A stretch of 64,000 nucleotides of DNA from positions 23,960 to 87,959 of IMG/VR virus record IMGVR_UViG_3300025000_002059, one strand, 5' to 3'. Below, one piece after another: positions 17,247-48,257 of this stretch (its first letter is position 1; every line of letters starts with the position of its first letter). The notes beneath the pieces are model-generated. The model saw nothing but the letters and a program-made list of their open reading frames with translations. It ran no database searches and was not told where the DNA came from. The position numbers were made by a program, and so were the translations under genes. This stretch comes from a virus.

Positions 17247-17542
17247 TGCTAGTTAATGGAACTCCGGCTATTGCAGATATTAAGAGTCAGTGTTCAATTA
17301 TTCCCGGATTTGAATTTAACTACATCGCTTACAAGGGGAAAGTATTGTGGAGCACGGTATCGGCATCGCTTGATGATTATTTCATTTATCTTTATGACGG
17401 ACCAAATTATAAAAATGGGTGGGATCCATATACGGTAGCCTGCGTAGATGAACACGGTGATCTGTTTTACTACGGTCGCTGGACGAAATTAAAAAATGCA
17501 CTTGCATGGCTTGCGGATCCAAACATGCCAGAAAGGGACTAA
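17243..17542 (+). CDS. Hypothetical protein
   Basis: Translationally coupled ORF. Confidence 0.55.
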   Translation: MMLVNGTPAIADIKSQCSIIPGFEFNYIAYKGKVLWSTVSASLDDYFIYLYDGPNYKNGWDPYTVACVDEHGDLFYYGRWTKLKNALAWLADPNMPERD

Positions 17543-17547
17543 AGCAA

Positions 17548-18309
17548 TTGGAGACACTAGCGGTAATAAACCAAAAGGGCGGCGTAGCCAAAACTACAAC
17601 GAGCGTGAATATGGCGGCCATAATAGCCGCCATGGGATTCAAGACATTACTTATTGATGTGGATCCGCAAGCTAATCTTTCCCAATCCTTGGGCATTGTT
17701 GCCTTTGATATGGGAACACCTAATCTTTTCGAGGATCCGAAAATAACACTTAGCAAGTGCGTTAATGAAACAAGCATAACGAAATTATCCATTATTCCAT
17801 CGGACCTATCACTAGCACAAGTTGAATGGGAACTTTTGAAAACATTTAAAGGCACCAATACTTCTATTCTGCGAGACAAGATCAAGGCAAGTGAGGAAGA
17901 ATTTGATTATTGCATTATCGACTGCCCGCCAAGCTTAGGAATTTTCAGCCTTAATGCGCTCATTGCAGCGGACCGTGTGCTTATCCCGGTTGGTCTTGAT
18001 CCGTTCGGATTGATTGGAATAAAGTATCTAGTGAGCACGATCACTGATATCAGAATGAGTATAAACAAGCATCTCAAAATTCTGGGCATTGCACGGACCA
18101 TGTGGGATATGCGGCAGAGACTTGGACGAGAAATCAGCGAAAGTATGGAAAAGGATTATCCGGGAAAAGTCCTTGAGACGATTATAAAAATGAATGTAAG
18201 CGTCAAGGAAAGTGCTGTTGCCCAAATGCCACTGGTCATTTATGAGCCAAATGCTCCGGCTGCGCTGCAATACATTCAATTAACGAATGAAGTGTTACAG
18301 AGATGGTGA
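17548..18309 (+). CDS. parA: ParA/Soj partition ATPase
   Basis: NQKGGVAKTT deviant Walker A, DVDPQANL, IIDCPPSLG; TTG start after AAGGG. Confidence 0.93.
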   Translation: METLAVINQKGGVAKTTTSVNMAAIIAAMGFKTLLIDVDPQANLSQSLGIVAFDMGTPNLFEDPKITLSKCVNETSITKLSIIPSDLSLAQVEWELLKTFKGTNTSILRDKIKASEEEFDYCIIDCPPSLGIFSLNALIAADRVLIPVGLDPFGLIGIKYLVSTITDIRMSINKHLKILGIARTMWDMRQRLGREISESMEKDYPGKVLETIIKMNVSVKESAVAQMPLVIYEPNAPAALQYIQLTNEVLQRW

Positions 18310-18584
18310 GAAAACAGGGTAGGCCAAATATTCAAGCAATGCTGGAAGGAATCGATCTGGATAATAAGGAAGTACAGGAAGAAAAGCCAGATAAGTCAGA
18401 GGTAGAAGCGATAGCTGAACCGGACTTAAATGAAAAACTAAAGCGATGCTATGTAGTAACAGGATTTCATCTTGAAAAAATAATGCTTCTAAAGACCAAA
18501 AAATACAGAAAATATGATATGAGCGAAATTGTCTGTATGGCGATTGATTCATTTTTTGAAAAAGAAATGAACGGAGAGAAGTAA
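18303..18584 (+). CDS. Small putative centromere-binding adaptor (type Ib ParB/RHH-like)
   Basis: Overlaps the parA stop; acidic flexible N-terminus; C-terminal MSEIV..AIDSFF RHH-like helix. Confidence 0.55.
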   Translation: MVRKQGRPNIQAMLEGIDLDNKEVQEEKPDKSEVEAIAEPDLNEKLKRCYVVTGFHLEKIMLLKTKKYRKYDMSEIVCMAIDSFFEKEMNGEK

Positions 18585-18590
18585 TACAAT

Positions 18591-19349
18591 ATGATTGAAG
18601 AAATAGATGACCAAATATTTACCATGACAAGTGATCTCTCGGATGAAGAACTGGTCGATTTTGCAGCTGGGATATTTAAGAGCAATTGGAAAACATCATA
18701 CGATTACCAGAAAACGGATCCTATTATATTTCAAAGCTTGCCGATCGATGGGAAAATACTTAAGCATACCGATTTTTTGTCTTCGGCTGTTTATATATCA
18801 GAACTAACACAAAAGGCATTATCCTATAGATGGAATGAGATAGGAGGTCTAGCCGGGAAAGAACTGAAGGAGTGGGATGCCAATGGCGGCCTTTGTATTT
18901 ATCTATCCATTTTGCATTTTTGTTTACTGCTGGAAAGCAAAGCCGTAAAAGAGAATGAACTATGCTTAGTCCAAGGATTTTATAGGCATCCAACACACGG
19001 AATACTCAGTATATTCTCAAATCTGGGAACTCAATGCGGAGTTCATGCCTTTATAAGCGTTCAGGGAGCGGTTGTTGATTTTTCGATACAGCAAGAAGCA
19101 TCAACGTTCGAATTTGGAGAAAAAGAATTCATTATTGGCGATATCCCAGATGAGATGGAGATGGTCGGCTGGACAGAAGGAAAGCATTTAGTCAAGCAAT
19201 ATGCGCGTGAGATAGCCCGGAGCAGCGGACTTAATTATTTTGAATGGATTGAACAGCACAAAATCAATTCATATAAACTTGCAAGCAAAGAACTTAACAA
19301 AGAGCTTGTAAGGCTTAAAAGATTATATAAAAGTTTGGAGGATGAATGA
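18591..19349 (+). CDS. Hypothetical protein, possible transglutaminase/papain-like Cys-His-Asp fold
   Basis: GGLCIYLS ... GVHAFISVQGAVVDFS; directly upstream of the Tas-like gene. Confidence 0.5.
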   Translation: MIEEIDDQIFTMTSDLSDEELVDFAAGIFKSNWKTSYDYQKTDPIIFQSLPIDGKILKHTDFLSSAVYISELTQKALSYRWNEIGGLAGKELKEWDANGGLCIYLSILHFCLLLESKAVKENELCLVQGFYRHPTHGILSIFSNLGTQCGVHAFISVQGAVVDFSIQQEASTFEFGEKEFIIGDIPDEMEMVGWTEGKHLVKQYAREIARSSGLNYFEWIEQHKINSYKLASKELNKELVRLKRLYKSLEDE

Positions 19350-19352
19350 GCG

Positions 19353-20408
19353 ATGGCTAGGAAAAAGAATGAAGAAGAAGTCACCCTAACCAATCAGGAA
19401 ATGATTCAAAAAGAAGAGCGCCATAGAAAAGATTTAGAAAATAAACTAAAGGCATCGGAAGCATCAGCGGAAGATCAGAAACAATTTACTCCCTTGGTCA
19501 AACTTACTAAGGATTTAAGAAGCGCAAGCCGGACATTGAATCCACAAGAAGCCCGGTATCTAGTGGACAGGTACTACCAAATCCAACAATACCGGACCAG
19601 CGCCAAGAATCAGATTAGAGCATCGGAAAGCGAAGAACCAAATGAAGTTATTGTCTGGTTTGCAGAGAACTTTGAGGAACTGGAGAAGAACATAAAAAAG
19701 GCGCTGGATGCTTATACGAGTAGTCATCCGGTCGGAGCTTGGGCCAAATCGGTGATCGGCGTAGGTCCGACATTCGCAGCCGGGCTTCTAGCGCACATTG
19801 ATGCGAAGAAAGCACCAACAGCCGGAGCCGTGTGGAGTTACGCAGGATATAATCCAAGTGTTGAATGGTTAAAAGGTCAGAAGCGTCCATGGAATGCTGA
19901 TTTAAAAAAACTATGTTATCTCATAGGTGAATCATTTGTAAAGGTTTCCAATAATCCTAAAGATATCTATGGTAAATTATATCGCCAAAGAAAAGATCAG
20001 GAGATAGCGAAGAATATAGCGGGAGAATTTGCGGAACAAGCAATATCAAAGCTGGAGAAATTCAAGATAGGTAAAGATACTGATGCTTACATATGGTATG
20101 CAGGATGTCTGACTGAAGATAAAGCCAGAGCAATTCTTCTGGGTGAAAAATCCGGATCAGCCAAAAGTCTAGCGGGAGAAAAGGATTCTGGGATTCGTAT
20201 GCTTCCACCAGCACATATCAACGAGCGGTCCAAGCGATATGCTGTTAAAATATTCCTAGCCCATTTTCATGAGGTCTTATTTGAATATGAATTTGGGACC
20301 AAGCCACCAAATCCATATGCTATCTCAATCCTGGGACATGCACATAAGCTGGAAGTTCCAAACTATGAAGTATTTAAAAAAGCGATGGAAGAAGATCCGT
20401 CACTATAG
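19353..20408 (+). CDS. IS110/Nop-domain RNA-binding protein lacking a nuclease domain (TIGR-associated TasA-like)
   Basis: Coiled coil (LVDRYYQIQQYRTSAKNQIR), then SVIGVGPTFAAGLL..I, VWSYAGYNP, WNADLKKLCYLIGESFVK and HINERSKRYAVKIFL; no DEDD/RuvC N-terminus; abuts a repeat array. Confidence 0.85.
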   Translation: MARKKNEEEVTLTNQEMIQKEERHRKDLENKLKASEASAEDQKQFTPLVKLTKDLRSASRTLNPQEARYLVDRYYQIQQYRTSAKNQIRASESEEPNEVIVWFAENFEELEKNIKKALDAYTSSHPVGAWAKSVIGVGPTFAAGLLAHIDAKKAPTAGAVWSYAGYNPSVEWLKGQKRPWNADLKKLCYLIGESFVKVSNNPKDIYGKLYRQRKDQEIAKNIAGEFAEQAISKLEKFKIGKDTDAYIWYAGCLTEDKARAILLGEKSGSAKSLAGEKDSGIRMLPPAHINERSKRYAVKIFLAHFHEVLFEYEFGTKPPNPYAISILGHAHKLEVPNYEVFKKAMEEDPSL

Positions 20409-22292
20409 CCAAGTTACTTTGATTTTAAACAAAGCCATTGAGCGAACCATCAGACAAGAGAGTATCAACAATAGAAGAGTGAGCCAACAAGCGTGAGCTA
20501 ATTGCATCCCATAAAAGCGAGCCACTAACCATGAATTATGCAACGAAAGAAAGCGAGCCATAGCAACAGATTACCCCATCTCGACGAGAGCGAGCCAATG
20601 GTCTATGAAAGCAGAATTGACCATCAAACAAGAGTGAACCGTGTGCAAAGATTGTATCAATTAGGAGAAGTGAGTCATTAGATTAGAATAGCACCATATC
20701 CGCAAAGCGAGCCGTTAGATCAGAAATTTATTTTATTCATTCCCATTGAGTGAGCCAAGAGCCAAGGTATACGAAAGCACCAACAACAACGAGCGAGTCA
20801 TCCGATATGAAATTAGATACAAATGCGTTGAGCGATCCAAAATGAATTGTAGCGAAACAAAGCGAACCATGGGTATGGAGAAATACCATTTATCTCCGAG
20901 TGAACCAAAAAATTAGAATAAATCGCCAAAGTAGAGTGAGCCATATGAAATAGATTAAATCACACTCTAAGAGCGAGCCAAGCTAACTTAATATAAAATG
21001 AACGAACCAGAATGCTTGATTGGGACAAAAATAACGAGTGAGCCACTAAAGGGAATTATAATATTTAATCAAAAAATGCAATGAGCGAAACAAAATATTT
21101 TGATCGAACCATTATAAAGGAGATATTCCGGGGATAACGAGTGAGTCATGCAGGAAAGCGTGATGGGATGTTGGCTTAGAAGCAGCCATGGCTGGAAGGC
21201 TGATTGCTTTATGCAATCCATCTAAGGAGTGGGGCGATGGCTATTTGTGACTTGATTGTTTTTCCACATTATTAGCAATCTGAACCCGATGAGGGAAAAT
21301 GAATGTGGTAGTGTTACGATGATACCGATGCATTTGTAGTGACAAGGTAACATAAAAGCTGCAAATGAAGGAAAGCGTATAGCTTGGGAGTTGCTTTAGA
21401 GTTACACTTGGTTATCCCTTTTGGCGTAATAGCACACCATCACATGAGTCATGCGGAATGATTGAACGAAATAGTGAGTGAACCATCAATAATGACCGGA
21501 ACATTGTGTCAGAGTGAGCCACGATATAAGAATAGCAACATTAATAGTTGGAGCGAACCAATCAAGCCGAAAATTAACATTCCCTATGAGTGAGTCAGGT
21601 ATATTTATGAAAAATATGAACGAGTCGAAGGAAGTAAGGGTACCAATCTCATAGAGCGAGCCATAAGGAATAATGGCAACATCACAGGAAAGCGAACCAC
21701 TAATAGCGAGTTACATCATTATACGAGAGTGAACCGTCAGAAGCGAAACTAAGTATCATATATTCAGAGTGAATCGGGATATTGGAGAGCACCACACATA
21801 CTGAGTGAATCAGGACTATGGAAAGCAGCAGATAAGCCGAGTGAGCCGAATAATGGGATAGCACCACGCTGGTTAAGCGAGCCATTGAAGGAAATAGGAT
21901 CAGAAATGCAGAGCGAGCCGCAGGATGTAAAAGCACAATAAAAAGAGAGCGAGCCAGACCAACCGAAAGCAGTATTGAGCGAGAGCGAGCCAGAGGAAAA
22001 AGATTAATTCATTGCAGGACAACGAGCCATAACTACAGATTAACGACAAGATTATAAGAGCGAACCAAAATCACGCTTAAATAAAATTGAAACATTAGCG
22101 AGTGAGTCATAGGACTTGATTGAATCACCCCATCGGAGCGATCCATATTAAGCGAGAATAACCAGCGTAGGTTGAGTGAGCCAAATGGAAGCGAGAGTAC
22201 CAATTGCATAGAGTGAGCCAGAACTGGTGATTAAAATCATTAATGCGAGAGCGAACCATGGCAAGAGAGGACCACAAATATAGAGTGATTCA
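20407..22292 (+). repeat. TIGR-type dual-spacer guide-RNA array 1 (~43 units), interrupted by a structured RNA
   Basis: ~36-nt period: edge AG(T/C)GA(G/A)CCA, 9-nt spacer, loop e.g. AGAG(T/C)ACCA, 9-nt spacer. Confidence 0.9.
21160..21443 (+). ncRNA. Structured RNA mimicking the 23S rRNA L11-binding domain (H43/H44), with two inserted helical domains
   Basis: GGATGTTGGCTTAGAAGCAGCCAT ... CATCTAAGGAGT ... GCGTAATAGCACAC, closed by GTGATGG/CCATCAC; flanked by TGAGTCATGC direct repeats. Confidence 0.75.
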
Positions 22293-22309
22293 AAAGCGAG
22301 GAATTATCG

Positions 22310-22594
22310 ATGAGAGATTTAATCAGTTATGATGAGATGCTAGAAAACAAGGATAAGCTAAAAACCATATTCCTCGATTTCAAGGCACGGTATTATGCTT
22401 TGGGCAAGAAGCAGAATGGAAAATTTAAAACGAGTGATCTTGACCGATTAATCCGGGAGACGATCGCAGAATTAAAAGGCAAAGAAAAACTTATTGCCGA
22501 AGGATTTCTGGAATTCGTGCTGGGATTTTTATTCAACAGCTCGTGGGATTCTACGAAGGCTTTTAATTCTGTAGATAAAATGTTTAACTGGTAG
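22310..22594 (+). CDS. Hypothetical protein (cargo between arrays 1 and 2)
   Basis: GAGG RBS right after the final edge repeat. Confidence 0.6.
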   Translation: MRDLISYDEMLENKDKLKTIFLDFKARYYALGKKQNGKFKTSDLDRLIRETIAELKGKEKLIAEGFLEFVLGFLFNSSWDSTKAFNSVDKMFNW

Positions 22595-22601
22595 ATAAAT
22601 T

Positions 22602-23030
22602 TAGCCAAAACAGATGATAGTATCACGGCATCCAAGCGAACCATTGACTATCGCCGGAAAGCGAGCCAATTCACACGACTAAAAACAAGATACTGAAGCG
22701 AACCAGAGGAAAAGACTATTTCATTACAGGAAAGTGAGCCGGACCAATTGATAAATACATTAAATGAGAGTGAGCCACGGTTAGGGACAATTTCAATTAT
22801 TAGAAGCGAGTCAAACAGATAAGATTTCCATTTAAAGAGAGCGATCCATTTCAGATGACAGTAACAGCCTTTACGAGTGAGCCAGAAAATAGGATAGCAT
22901 CATTATGCGAAAGCGAGCCAAGTGCATGAAGATATAAACCATTAAACGAGATCGAACCAGTAGACAAGGAAAGTATCATGATCATAAAGTGAGCCAAACA
23001 CCATGATTAGTAACATTATGGACAAGCGGA
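22602..23030 (+). repeat. TIGR-type array 2 (~12 units)
   Basis: Same edge/loop periodicity as array 1. Confidence 0.88.
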
Positions 23031-23057
23031 CTAATACACCCTTGGGAGGTGGAACGA

Positions 23058-23495
23058 TTGGACCACGAAATATCATACCCAGAAAAGAAATGTCCCGGAT
23101 GCGGAAATGATAATCTACTGGATGGACCGCGAGGTGGACTATCTCAAAATGTCTTATGCCCGGAATGCCAAAGAGAATGGAACTATGGACCATTTGGGTA
23201 TGAAGAAATCAGCCCGGCACGAACATACTTATACCGAGTTGTGTCTCCAAAACTTGATCTGCGGATCATCCCAGTAGGATGCAAGCCGGGATGCTGTGGG
23301 GAAACATATCCATGCATTGATGAGGTAGCCATGATTATAGAACAGGGCAATCTTGCCTTTATGATTCACGGCGAGCACGTTAAGGAGCAGTTAGAGAAAC
23401 TAGAATACAGAATTGATGTAACGAGTCATAACAACATACCGATTGGAATGTATATATCTGAAAAGGGATCAAAAAGCGTGTACGAAAGATTTTAG
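23058..23495 (+). CDS. Zn-ribbon hypothetical protein (cargo between arrays 2 and 3)
   Basis: CPGC...GPRGGLSQNVLCPEC; GGAGGT RBS and TTG start. Confidence 0.6.
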   Translation: MDHEISYPEKKCPGCGNDNLLDGPRGGLSQNVLCPECQREWNYGPFGYEEISPARTYLYRVVSPKLDLRIIPVGCKPGCCGETYPCIDEVAMIIEQGNLAFMIHGEHVKEQLEKLEYRIDVTSHNNIPIGMYISEKGSKSVYERF

Positions 23496-23712
23496 CCAGC
23501 ACATGAGAAAATCCAGAGATCGTGAGCGAATCAATTGATGAAAAAAGCAACATTACTCCGGAGTGAACCGATTGAAATGATGATCCATTGACCAAGAGTG
23601 AGCCAATATCTATGAGCCACCCAATTTAAAGTAGCGAGCCATCCCAAAGGATTTTTCAATTCCACGGAAGCGAGCCATTATAAGGCGATATTTCAGTCCA
23701 CGGGAGCGATCC
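23494..23712 (+). repeat. TIGR-type array 3 (~6 units)
   Basis: Begins at TAGCCA, overlapping the upstream stop codon. Confidence 0.88.
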
Positions 23713-23752
23713 AATTCACCAGTCTAATATTTCTTGGAGTGAAAATATTTTT

Positions 23753-24127
23753 ATGGATAGACTGCGAAATGAGCGAAAGGCCAACGGTTTATGTGCTCAA
23801 TGTGGAACTAAACTTGATAGGATTGGGAGATATTGCAAAAAATGCAATACTTCAGGGAATATTAATAAGCACAAACGTTGCCTAAAGCTTTATGCAATCG
23901 GTTTATGTACTACTTGCGCTGAGCCATTAGACAGAGATGGTTGGTTTTGCTCAAGGTGTGCAAACAACTTAAAACTTAGGGCAAGAGTTAGAGACACAGA
24001 AAGAAGATTAAAAGGATTATGCGTTCAGTGTGGCGCTTGGGCAGATGGGTATTCCTATTGCCAACGCTGCAGGGATATGAGGATGGAGAGATATCACTCA
24101 AAGAAAAGGTCCATTCACCAAGAGTGA
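23753..24127 (+). CDS. Multi-Zn-finger protein (three GLCxxC...CxxC repeats), cargo between arrays 3 and 4
   Basis: Repeated GLC..C.......YC..C. Confidence 0.7.
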   Translation: MDRLRNERKANGLCAQCGTKLDRIGRYCKKCNTSGNINKHKRCLKLYAIGLCTTCAEPLDRDGWFCSRCANNLKLRARVRDTERRLKGLCVQCGAWADGYSYCQRCRDMRMERYHSKKRSIHQE

Positions 24128-24349
24128 GTGAGCCAATATTGGATTTTTACATTAGAGAAAGAGCGAATCAAACAGATATTATTTTTCAGATACCAAGAGT
24201 GAGCCAATTATGATGACAGAAACAACCCAAGAAAGCGAGTCAATGAATACGAACTTTATCAACAGATATGAAGCGAGCCATAACAATGAAGTATAACCAT
24301 CATCCAAGAGCGAGCCTAAGCAATTGATCACCCCACACTCACTGAGCGA
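24108..24349 (+). repeat. TIGR-type array 4 (~6-7 units)
   Basis: Same periodicity; first unit overlaps the 3' end of the Zn-finger gene. Confidence 0.85.
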
Positions 24350-34779: not shown

Positions 34780-37116
34780 AGCCATGAACTGCGATTAAAT
34801 CAATTATTGTAAGCGAGCCAAGAATAGAGATTTTACAGAATTTTGAGCGAGTCAACTAGGTAGATTTTTTCAAATGTCCAAAGCGAACCAAAGCGCTTGA
34901 GAGCGCCAAAATTGGCAAGTGAACCATCAGTAGCAATAGTGCCAAACTATCAGAGTGAGCCAAAGTATTTGAGTTAAAATCATAAAAAGGTAAGTGAGTC
35001 ATCGAACCAGATTATAAACATTGAAGAATAGCGAACCATTTTTGATTAAGAGAGTGAGTCAAAGTTTCCGATCGTACCTAAGTAAGGGAGCGAGTCCAAA
35101 GGTTTTTCAGTGTACCAGAAAGAGGGAGCGAGTCATACCAAACAGAAAAAAGAACGAACCACGAACATAGACTTATTCATTTTACGAGAGTGAGCTAATA
35201 ATGCCGATAGCAACAAAAACAGTGAACGAGCCAAGAATACTGAGAGTACCATATTTCGAGAGCGAGCCAGTAAGATGGGTATTTCCAAAAAAGAGAAGCG
35301 AGCCAAGAACTCTGATATCCCAGACCAAGCAAGCGAGTCAAGGTTTCCGACCATACCCAAACGTAAGGGATCGAGTCAAGGTTTCCGAGTGCACCGAAAT
35401 TAGGGATCGAGACATGATAGCTGATTTAATCGTAAATAATGATCGTTTCAATCCACGCACCAGAAATGAGGTGCGACAATAAATATAAGTGAGCCAGCTG
35501 CATTGAGATTACCAATGTAGAGAAGCGAACCAACGAATGTGATTAGTTTACAATTGAAGAGTGAACCACACGATAAGATGTCACCGTATGTTTGGAGTGA
35601 GCCAAAGAATTAAAAAAACATTATATGCAAGCGAACCAAAAACCTTAGACAATATCAAACCCCAAGAGTGAGTCAAGCTTTCCGAGAGGTCCAGAACGGA
35701 TGAACGAATCATGTTTCGTGAGAGCACCAGAAACATGGAGTGAGCCAAGAACACTGAGATACCAATTGCGAGAGAGCGAGCCAATAACTACGATCGATCA
35801 CTGAAAAGAAGCGAACCAGTGTTGCTGGATTTGAGCAAAGTCTCTGAGTGAGTCATGGAGACAGGATAAGATCCAAATATGTCATGACTTTCTATTAGTC
35901 GTGTGGGATTGAAACATAGCTGCTAAACGAGCCAAAATATAGAATAGCAACATTAATAGTGGAGCGAACCATGGCGAATGATAATGACAATTTCCATTGA
36001 GTGAACCATTAGGAATGAGAGAACCAGTTAAATGAGTGAACCATGTATCGTGAAAAATTTCAAGCGTTACGAGTGAGCCAACAGAGTTAATCATTACAAT
36101 TGTTCAGAGCGAATCATTAAACTTGATTGTATCAGAGGTTAGAAGTGAATCAATGGGACGGAGAGTACCACAAACCATTAGTGAGCCATTCAATCGGAGA
36201 GCACCGTAAAGAACGAATCATAAGCGGCGAAAGAATCAGAACCTCGAAGTGAACCATGTATTGTGATATTTCATAATCTGTGAAGTGAGCCATCATTAGG
36301 GATTGTTTCAATTATTAGGAGTGAACCACTTTTTGTGAGAAACACAGCGATATAAGGGTGAGCCAAGAACACCGACAGTCAACAAAGCCACAAAGCGAAC
36401 CAATGTTGGAGAGAGCACCGTGCCATTCGAGTGAACCGATGTCGCACCATTTTTAAACAGAGCGAGCCAATGACGATGGAGAGCACCATGATCACGGAGC
36501 GAACCACCATTAGGGATAGTAACATATTTTTGGAGTGAGCCGAGGATACTGACATTTAAACCAGATGGAAAGAGTGAGCCAAAGTATCCGAATACAACAA
36601 CCTTCTAGAGCGAGTCACCCCACAAGAGCACACCCATGTCCGTTAAGCGATCCATCAAGGCATAGAGCACCATCAAGCATGAGTGAATCGACATTCGTGA
36701 GATACCCAATACTTGTGAGTGAGCCAGCATATCTGAATATTTCAATAGTCGTGAGTGAGCCACTGCCGCAAGATAATACCATGTCCATAGAGCGATCCAC
36801 TACGCAAGATAGCACCACAACTGTAGAGTGAACCATCGGGGAGAATTAATCATCGGTTAGAAGTGAGTCATTAAACTTGATAGCACCATATCCGCAAATC
36901 GAGCCAATCATGCTGAATATTTCAATGAGCCAGAGTGATCCAATTATTTAGATCGAATCAATAAATCTGAGTGACCAAAAATGAACAAAGAAGTCTTACA
37001 ATATGGCAACATATGTGATAATGTATGGATAAGCCAACGCTGCTGGCGAACTTGACTAGAGTACCAGATGCCAGCAAAACGAGTCGACAATGATGAGTGA
37101 CCAACAATAATGAGCG
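34780..37116 (+). repeat. TIGR-type array 5, stand-alone (~60 units, degenerate 3' end)
   Basis: Same edge/loop repeats, e.g. AGCCA AGAATACTG AGAGTACCA TATTTCGAG AGCG. Confidence 0.9.
35445..35477 (-). CRISPR. Solitary type I-C CRISPR repeat embedded in array 5
   Basis: Minus strand GTCGCACCTCATTTCTGGTGCGTGGATTGAAAC; single copy; no cas genes in window. Confidence 0.75.
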
Positions 37117-47898: not shown

Positions 47899-48257
47899 TC
47901 AACCGAGCTGAGAGCACCATGAGAAGCGAACGAACCATGGAACAAGAAAAAAGCGTTATGTAGAAGTGAGCCAAATTTAAAGAGTGTACCAATGAACATG
48001 AACGAACCAAAAGGTCGGACTGAAACAATTCAAAAGAGTGAGCTATCTTGAATGGATTGAGACATTGAATGGGAGCGAACCAAAATCATTAAAAAATCAT
48101 GTTTAGTGAGTGAGCCAAACGAATGGAGAGCACCGCATTATAAGAGCGAACCATATAGATGGAGAATCCCAAATAGCAAGAAGTGAGCCAATACTCCTGA
48201 GAGTACCACATTCCGAGAGCGAGCCATGACGATGAGATAAACATTAGAAGGTGAGCG
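47897..48257 (+). repeat. TIGR-type array 6 (10 units) between pseB and the ParB-MT-A70 gene
   Basis: e.g. AGTGAGCCA ATACTCCTG AGAGTACCA CATTCCGAG AGCGAGCCA. Confidence 0.9.

Follow-up and report, generated by a model that had tools for sequence, protein, structure and literature searches.

A predicted self-closing copy of the ribosomal GTPase-associated centre in a phage TIGR-type guide array belongs to a large RNA family carried almost exclusively by phages

Why would a phage carry a copy of a functional centre of the ribosome in the middle of an array of small guide RNAs? This question is raised by the IMG/VR virus record IMGVR_UViG_3300025000_002059, a genome of 87,959 bp with direct terminal repeats, of which a stretch of 64,000 nucleotides (nt; bases 23960-87959 of the record, hereafter the window) was analysed. 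On the + strand, at window positions 21160-21443, lies the core of an RNA element of approximately 290 nt, in which three blocks of helices 43 and 44 (H43/H44) of 23S ribosomal RNA (rRNA) follow one another in order, with a closing helix of their own and two structured inserts. These helices belong to the GTPase-associated centre, which ranks with the most conserved and most thoroughly studied of all RNA domains. An earlier reading of the letters of the window (the sequence-only reading) had recognised this arrangement and proposed a selected fold, possibly a decoy, rather than a decayed rRNA fragment. Nucleotide numbers of the rRNA are given below in conventional E. coli 23S numbering, anchored on the 24-mer that forms the first block.

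The relationship to 23S rRNA is direct. Searches with blastn against 5,426 complete E. coli genomes returned a match of 26 nt at 100% identity (query 23-48, equal to window 21164-21189) in annotated 23S genes, in 5,426 of 5,426 genomes. The 23S sequences of E. coli and Staphylococcus (L175 and L176) hold the blocks in the same order as the element, and the three blocks, their order and their coordinates were all confirmed on re-reading. Compared with the bacterial GTPase-associated centre, which consists of the tip of H42, H43 and H44 (the 58-60-nt domain of uL11 and thiostrepton), the element has the same blocks, order and helices. It also shares the 1082-1086 tertiary pair, C1072 with the C1092-G1099 pair (CCG in all 101 distinct listed members of the family described below), and the 1067 and 1095 loops.

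The differences are equally well defined. Unlike the 23S centre, the element is free-standing and closed by a helix of free sequence, the private complementary pair GTGATGG/CCATCAC that the sequence-only reading had described. Unlike 23S rRNA, it carries a 29-nt insert between 1078 and 1079 in this member, and an insert (189 nt here) followed by TTTG between 1090 and 1091, the latter being constant in the family members listed. In Staphylococcus 23S, by comparison, GAGT directly abuts GCGTAATAGCTCAC, which holds the H44 tip GCGTAATAGC, and both reference sequences have T at 1101 and an uninterrupted 1090-1091 junction. Two base changes noted earlier were also found as described: C-G at 1082-1086, where rRNA has U-A, and A at 1101, where rRNA has U, which makes 1090-1101 a U-A pair. 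The element is thus not a full-length 23S gene, and its H44 is interrupted; the bacterial large-subunit (LSU) rRNA model RF02541 had no match in the 87,959-bp genome, in a search whose control matched in 13 of 14 genomes. The annotated 23S gene in record L180 is 2,896 nt long, with its own coordinates shifted by a few bases.

Evidence for the fold was sought in covariation, in place of thermodynamic folding. The latter gave z values of -1.95 on the + strand and -1.20 on the - strand, and both single-sequence folding and RNAalifold mispaired the core, as expected because the fold depends on tertiary contacts. Covariation of homologues, which had been named as a check by the sequence-only reading, placed pairing far above that of shuffled alignments: across 24 pairs in 47 sequences (alignment A1), 92.4% of cells were paired against 71.5% after shuffling, a level that none of 500 shuffles reached. 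The alignment's covariation score, 0.520, compares with 0.122 for shuffled alignments and 0.09-0.14 when partners were slid. Support falls on the closing helix, the H43 base, the tertiary pair 1082-1086 and the closing stem of the insert.

Individual pairs tell the same story among the 101 distinct listed members, the scope of the counts in this paragraph unless another is given. Here, the way in which the sequences were collected biases any count that falls in either of the two search patterns; only positions outside them, namely those of the closing helix, 1057-1058, 1079-1090 and the insert stem, are free of that bias. The closing helix (1051-1108: AU 27, UA 26, GC 25, CG 12) and 1058-1080 (UA 46, GC 25, AU 22, CG 3) each show all four Watson-Crick types, and 1057-1081 is AU in 81 and CG in 15. 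Together with 1059-1079, the last two positions are 97-99% paired in listed members. The tertiary pair 1082-1086 is UA in 39, CG in 37 and AU in 16 of 100 listed members (93% paired), and 1090-1101 is U-A in 99 of 100. Within the search patterns, and therefore with biased counts, U1060, G1071, C1072 and A1077 are invariant, 1061 is U in 67, A in 23 and G in 10, and 1067 is A in 84, G in 14 and C in 3.

The second insert is tied into this fold at a fixed place. Its first three bases pair with the three that precede TTTG in 99%, 98% and 91% of 100 listed members, with GC, AU, UA and CG all present. TTTG itself is found in 99 of the 101 distinct members; the first of its positions, not covered by the search pattern, holds T in 100 of 101. 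Within H44, the 1087-1090/1101-1102 helix, the insert arm and a two-pair H44 tip form a three-way junction, with TTTG as the sole linker. Judged by sequence comparison, the fold copies the H43/H44 GTPase-associated centre in a selected, self-closing form; family-wide covariation, including the 1082-1086 tertiary pair, bears out the claim that it is not a decayed rRNA fragment.

The element is a member of a large RNA family that is almost exclusively found in phages. In 50,697 phage records, blastn found two-piece matches to both element ends, 233-242 nt apart, in unannotated intergenic DNA. The carriers were Xanthomonas phages XacN1 and XbC2, Erwinia phage Kaldavass, Serratia phage BF and six Erwinia pEa_SNUABM phages; the element of XacN1 has a stem-loop and a T run on its 3' side. 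Aeromonas phage 4_4572 and Pseudomonas phage Astolliot have one member each, immediately upstream of a transfer RNA (tRNA) gene for Met. Three pattern scans of IMG/VR gave 7, 31 and at least 117 loci, and a script run over 134 sources counted at least 121 elements with both 5' and 3' blocks on viral contigs. An insert is present in all 121 listed elements, with a spacing of 58-398 nt between the 5' and 3' blocks, and its site is the same throughout: after GAGU (1087-1090), and followed by the UUUG linker.

These numbers rest on the following selection. The family is defined by the covariance model R1 and alignment A1, and the set of at least 121 elements reduces to 101 distinct ones and to 85 at approximately 85% identity, of which 47 are in alignment A1 and 30 in A3. 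Of the 134 sources, 11 have a 3' block but not a 5' block; eight of these are cut by the locus end, and in L086, L094 and L098 the 5' block is absent although 800 nt are available, so that they are not among the counted elements. An insert-less, rRNA-like form in L035 was excluded from the members. This form (962-1031) is a GTPase-centre copy on an 8-kb viral contig, with GAGT abutting GCGTAATAGCTCAC and flanks that are not 23S; it scores 47.5 bits, as true rRNA does, and could represent either a recently captured copy or a minimal form.

Outside viral collections the family is rare. In 185,579 prokaryotic species, with one genome each, 41 stretches were found, 25 of them full-length model hits of at least 72 bits. 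Of 37 such stretches examined, 16 had tRNA genes, up to 25 within 8 kb, and these look like binned phage contigs or prophages. One contig, binned as Candidatus Limenecus (L147 3993-5388), has three R1 hits in 1.4 kb (94, 45 and 25 bits), with tRNA genes in between.

Membership of the window's element does not depend on the sequences used to build the model. R1, made from 30 short members with none of the window's type, matched window 21156-21446 (+) over positions 1-177 of 177 with 85.4 bits (E 1.6e-26), and had no other match in the rest of the genome, which holds one copy of the element. For comparison, true 23S sites scored 49.5 bits in E. coli, 58.0 in Staphylococcus and 57.4 in a fragment from the record of Paenibacillus phage Pd_22F. 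The element has the family's private helix ending in G1055-C1104, lies in a small-RNA array on the same strand and, at window 21227-21437, has the insert after GAGU(1090), closed by a stem and followed by TTTG, then GCGTAAYAGC with A at 1101. As far as sequence models can tell, its membership is beyond chance.

Two further observations concern the edges of the family. In Astolliot (L179 1015-1341), a second, strongly diverged copy lies directly upstream of the canonical member, and the same is seen at the start of L006, in reverse complement. The Astolliot copy has an H44-like GGTGTCATAACAC, an H43-like block GGGCTTAGAAGTAGCC and an XacN1-type insert, and scores 19.2 bits with R1; these copies suggest a tandem paralogous subfamily. 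The Pd_22F record (L177) has, near one genome end, a true 23S stretch continuing more than 400 nt past the GTPase centre, which is either host DNA or an assembly artefact and not a family member.

Where the family sits in phage genomes is also informative. A tRNA gene lies within 2 kb of 66 of the 121 listed elements and within 300 nt of 55, and all those tRNAs are co-oriented with the element, many of them abutting it. Among those listed, only three elements lie among TIGR repeats: that of the window and those of two contigs of 86,734 bp (L019, identical to L181) and 88,032 bp (L030), whose Tas proteins are 77% identical to the window's. The distance of the element past the tas stop codon is 276 nt in L019, approximately 750 nt in the window and approximately 10.4 kb in L030, where it lies in a different array block. 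Among the loci of the 101 distinct listed elements, no family of neighbouring proteins was seen in more than 7, and in 50 carrier phage records neither a uL11 domain (0/50) nor a translational GTPase domain (0/50) was found, so that the partner of the RNA, if it has one, must be host-derived. Two contigs of metagenome-assembled genomes (L138 and L158) have phage-like tRNA arrays that contain the element and also encode transfer-messenger RNA genes.

In the window's phage, no tRNA genes were found (0 in the genome), and the element lies instead in an array of guides. A + strand repeat with a period of approximately 36 nt covers window 20440-24316, 34953-36834 and 48073-48225, and the motif GAGYGARCC has 52 matches in the window, exclusively on the + strand, against 0.85 expected. 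The array starts at the stop codon of a 351-amino-acid protein that matches the Protein Data Bank chain 9mty_A, an IS110 C-terminal-domain protein (E 1.4e-12), and TasH chains (E 7.1e-8); its sole match in Pfam is a sub-threshold one to Transposase_20. By these similarities, array and protein fit published TIGR-Tas systems. Reports on these systems describe arrays cleaved to 36-nt guides with ends in mid edge repeat (Faure et al. 2025, PMC12045711) and Tas proteins without a nuclease that act as RNA-guided repressors (bioRxiv 10.64898/2026.09.09.750476). The tas-like gene is the last of a tightly packed set on the + strand (17506-20408) that also includes parA (AAA_31, E 1.5e-50) and a 252-amino-acid open reading frame (ORF) without a Pfam match. 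The same three genes are kept in L181, with identities of 66% for ParA, 51% for the ORF product and 77% for Tas.

The element is not itself a guide unit, which has 36 nt composed of edge repeat, spacer A, loop repeat plus spacer B: approximately 300 nt separate the flanking edge repeats, with no internal GAGYGARCC. The earlier placement inside a TIGR-type array and on the array's strand was upheld, and no promoter-like or terminator-like site was found on the + strand at 20409-22960, nor any ORF of more than 50 amino acids overlapping the element. Co-transcription with the TIGR array is the simplest reading. The 10-bp direct repeat that had been seen at both flanks is real in the window. It is composed, however, of the 3' part of the edge repeat plus TGC, and no equivalent was seen around the L019 or L030 elements, which makes it weak evidence for an insertion event. 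The features of the locus are collected in Table 1.

Table 1. Parts of the element and its surroundings in the window, in order of position
Feature	Position in window	Strand	Basis
tas-like gene, 351-amino-acid protein, upstream of the array	19353-20408	+	PDB-chain matches
TIGR-type guide array block with interleaved ORFs, ~36-nt period; hosts the element	20440-24316	+	GAGYGARCC counts
Last full edge repeat 5' of the element, GAGTGAGTCA; overlaps direct-repeat copy 1	21139-21148	+	sequence read
Direct-repeat copy 1, TGAGTCATGC	21142-21151	+	sequence read
Closing helix, 5' strand GTGATGG; final G is G1055	21160-21166	+	sequence and family covariation
First block, 24-mer GGATGTTGGCTTAGAAGCAGCCAT	21166-21189	+	sequence read
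H43 mimic, 1056-1078 including the 1067 loop	21167-21189	+	E. coli 23S identity; H43 pairs 94-100% paired
Insert 1, 29 nt, between 1078 and 1079; two small hairpins GGCTGGAAGGCT and GATTGCTTTATGCAATC	21190-21218	+	RNAalifold
CATCTAAGGAGT, 1079-1090: 3' strand of H43 base, 1082-1086 C-G pair, GAGU	21219-21230	+	sequence read
Insert 2, 189 nt, multi-helix; GGGG/CCCT closes directly against U1090 and the linker	21231-21419	+	pairing, compensatory changes
TTTG linker from insert 2 to the H44 tip	21420-21423	+	family conservation
Third block GCGTAATAGCACAC	21424-21437	+	sequence read
H44 tip GCGTAATAGC (1091-1100) and ACAC (1101-1104); 1101 is A and pairs with U1090	21424-21437	+	sequence read
Closing helix, 3' strand CCATCAC	21437-21443	+	sequence, covariation
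Direct-repeat copy 2, TGAGTCATGC; partial edge repeat resuming the array	21445-21454	+	sequence read

The inserts vary far more than the core. Across 100 listed members, insert 2 measures 25-365 nt with a median of 147.5, the shortest forms (25-40 nt) being simple hairpins. Motif classes cover 41 of the 100: a CACCCC...GGTAAGG hairpin in 23, GCRAAATG/GTGATGTG in 9, the XacN1 type in 5, a sarcin-ricin-loop hairpin in 4 and the window's type in 3. Of the 100, 18 have an insert at the site of insert 1. Insert 1 and the type of insert 2 are common to the window, L019 and L030, and no further relatives of this type were among the listed matches of a viral and a metagenome scan. Both inserts fold, as had been claimed, and show compensatory changes relative to these two closest relatives. 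For insert 1, RNAalifold of the three sequences gave pairs 35-46 and 47-64 with one compensation of G-C to A-U, and the alignment of the three as a whole has 12 pairs with compensatory two-sided changes.

The sarcin-ricin-loop hairpin occurs in elements of approximately 380-390 nt (L007, L053, L076 and L126), and the window's element lacks it. Identity to E. coli 23S is 13/13 nt in L007 and L126 and 11/11 in L053, L076 has an AGAA loop, and the stems differ among the four. A short-query blastn search of 100 inserts against the E. coli rrn operon found this loop in three members, the remainder being at chance level. A wider copy of domain VI in the inserts was considered and is unsupported; when the four members were turned into a profile, the GTPase centre was all that it picked up in 23S. 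Both L007 and L076 further contain GTACTAATGAA, 11 nt identical to a site near the 3' end of E. coli 23S, and insert 2 of L050 has another H44-like hairpin, GTGAGGGTTAATAGCTCAC, which shares 11 identical nt with E. coli 23S.

What might such an RNA do for a phage? The reading that we favour, tentatively and at somewhat below an even chance, is that it imitates the GTPase centre off the ribosome and captures a host ligand, with uL11 as the leading candidate. The element would be a non-coding RNA gene whose two ends rebuild an autonomous GTPase-associated-centre domain, with H43, H44 and the private helix replacing H42, and two peripheral arms would exit this core at fixed points, between 1078 and 1079 and between 1090 and 1091. 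Closed on itself, it cannot enter the ribosome and so would act as a free RNA. In other phages, members in tRNA arrays would be freed by tRNA processing. In the window's phage and its two relatives, the RNA would be co-transcribed with the TIGR guides, and a piece of approximately 300 nt would be left between the guide units on either side once these were processed within their edge repeats. This free RNA could then imitate the centre and capture a host molecule that recognises the folded site, with uL11 foremost among the candidates, whether by itself or as the platform of a factor docking at uL11 and the 1067/1095 cleft.

Several published properties of the centre bear on this proposal. One study describes it as an autonomous folding unit whose tertiary fold is needed for L11 binding (PMC6239185), and the listed family members keep the nucleotides that form this fold. 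The contacts given in another (PMC1802607) are 1058-1060, 1062-1065, 1075-1083 and 1088 for the C-terminal domain of uL11, and 1059-1064, 1068-1070 and 1095-1098 for its N-terminal domain and thiostrepton. The universal insert site between 1090 and 1091 lies outside both of these lists.

Other points weigh against capture of uL11. Ribosome-bound uL11 greatly exceeds the free pool, and the gain from a sponge is hard to see. By the same contact lists, insert 1 of the window's element lies inside the strand 1075-1083 contacted by the C-terminal domain; it may block uL11, and its position weakens a simple uL11 sponge for the window's member. Furthermore, A1067 is replaced in 17 of the 101 distinct listed members and A1070, called invariant in rRNA in PMC6239185, is changed to G in 14, indicating that the factor-facing loop is less constrained here than in ribosomes.

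Among the alternatives, a toxin decoy fares best, although we consider it unlikely. Here, the tip of H43/H44 would serve as a pseudo-substrate or tight inhibitor for a toxin of the host or a competitor, such as an rRNA ADP-ribosyltransferase or nuclease, sparing ribosomes that the phage needs. Phage tRNAs have been reported to counter tRNA-targeting defences, and the family is located among phage tRNA genes. The H44 loop is its least variable part, with G1093, U1094, A1095 and A1098 kept even in members found through the 5' block alone. The bacterial toxin Tre23 ADP-ribosylates 1095-1098, which is exactly the H44 loop, and blocks the GTPase activity of EF-G (PMC8661411). However, a decoy would have to be very abundant or very tight to protect tens of thousands of ribosomes from a catalytic toxin, and since the carriers infect very different hosts, the toxin would have to be equally widespread. 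We know of no anti-phage system aimed at the GTPase centre, for which no systematic search was made.

Titration of a translational GTPase or of RelA, with or without uL11, is a shade less probable still. A low-copy factor would be sequestered, for instance blunting the stringent response. The members with a sarcin-ricin hairpin would combine both rRNA halves of the factor-binding site in one molecule, and A1095 and the 1067/1095 cleft are kept in the window's element. Yet this hairpin occurs in just four of 100 listed members and is missing from the window's own, A1067 and A1070 vary, and isolated rRNA fragments bind factors weakly.

The core could instead be a scaffold, a compact fold, perhaps coated by uL11, that stabilises or presents the variable insert as the working part. 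Insert 2 does exceed the core in size (147.5 nt at the median and 365 at most), is structured and comes in several distinct types. We nevertheless hold this to be improbable, as the shortest inserts are plain hairpins of 25-40 nt, no insert motif is common to more than 23 of 100 listed members, and conservation of the core's unpaired loop and tertiary nucleotides goes past what a scaffold needs.

Two last explanations have almost nothing left in their favour. A self-splicing intron in a mini-exon, suggested by group I-like boundaries that hold throughout the listed members (insert 2 starts after U and ends in G), is very hard to reconcile with inserts down to 25 nt, with first insert bases that pair with the last bases before TTTG and not with an exon, with the lack of any Rfam intron match (E up to 10 for the window and up to 1 for seven relatives), or with the catalytic core and length of about 200 nt or more of group I introns (RF00028), which the element does not show. 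An accidental rRNA fragment, from host DNA pickup or an assembly chimera, does have a precedent in the Pd_22F record, but is refuted by covariation and family-wide architecture: the rRNA-like part is only approximately 60 nt long and has a private covarying helix closing it, in a genome without an LSU match, the same architecture with compensatory changes recurs in at least 121 viral-contig elements, and the element is kept across three phages with 77%-identical Tas.

Returning to imitation of the GTPase centre off the ribosome, a broader version can be put forward with somewhat less confidence. Phages of many lineages may make a free-standing replica of the factor-docking site, always with the uL11/thiostrepton domain and in some relatives with the sarcin-ricin loop, that disarms a host system reading or attacking this site, such as the stringent response, a translational GTPase or an rRNA-modifying toxin. 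In the window's clade, the TIGR array would double as a platform for its expression and processing.

Is any such RNA already described? The Rfam search that the sequence-only reading had also proposed placed the element in no described Rfam 15 family. The whole window had no match at the gathering score, and around the element the only match at E up to 10 was enod40 (E 4.3), which is attributed to chance. In seven relatives, at E up to 1, Rfam 15 yielded tRNAs, weak models of plastid untranslated regions overlying them and an 18-bit LSU match, and nothing else. The element is thus not one of the large phage-associated non-coding RNAs described in Rfam 15, such as ROOL, GOLLD and HEARO. Full-text literature searches, supplementary files aside, returned no description of such an RNA, and a term search found no mention of rRNA in the main text of the TIGR-Tas papers that it covered. 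This phage family of GTPase-centre mimics is therefore undescribed in Rfam 15 and the searched literature, and no prior description was found of a virus-encoded, self-closed, evolutionarily maintained copy of the centre.

Capture of uL11, a factor or a toxin by this RNA, if it takes place, would give viruses a new route into translation control or host defence. The family is also a natural experiment on which features of the domain each ligand needs, with two tolerated insertion points, relaxed positions at 1061, 1067 and 1070 and a strict H44 loop. Cultured carriers (Xanthomonas phage XacN1, Serratia phage BF, the Erwinia pEa_SNUABM phages, Aeromonas phage 4_4572 and Pseudomonas phage Astolliot) make bench tests possible.

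Three known systems help to place the element. The L10 and L1 leaders are autoregulatory leaders of ribosomal-protein mRNAs that mimic rRNA binding sites. Like them, the element is an off-ribosome RNA that copies an rRNA site, which in the leaders binds a ribosomal protein. Leaders, however, act in cis upstream of ribosomal-protein genes and copy only key features, whereas the element resembles a gene for a stable, probably trans-acting RNA, with no ribosomal-protein gene nearby, no Rfam match, TIGR units on both sides and uL11 in none of 50 carriers. A second parallel is the pseudo-ToxI of phage PhiTE, an antitoxin-mimic decoy (PMC3475682): there, a phage RNA imitates a host RNA and neutralises a host protein, while the element imitates a functional centre of the ribosome and its target is putative. 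Finally, in relation to TIGR-Tas arrays as set out in PMC12045711, the element lies inside the array, on the same strand and between edge repeats, and unlike a guide unit it has approximately 290 nt and no edge-loop-edge layout. This context indicates that guide arrays, like tRNA arrays, can host passenger RNAs.

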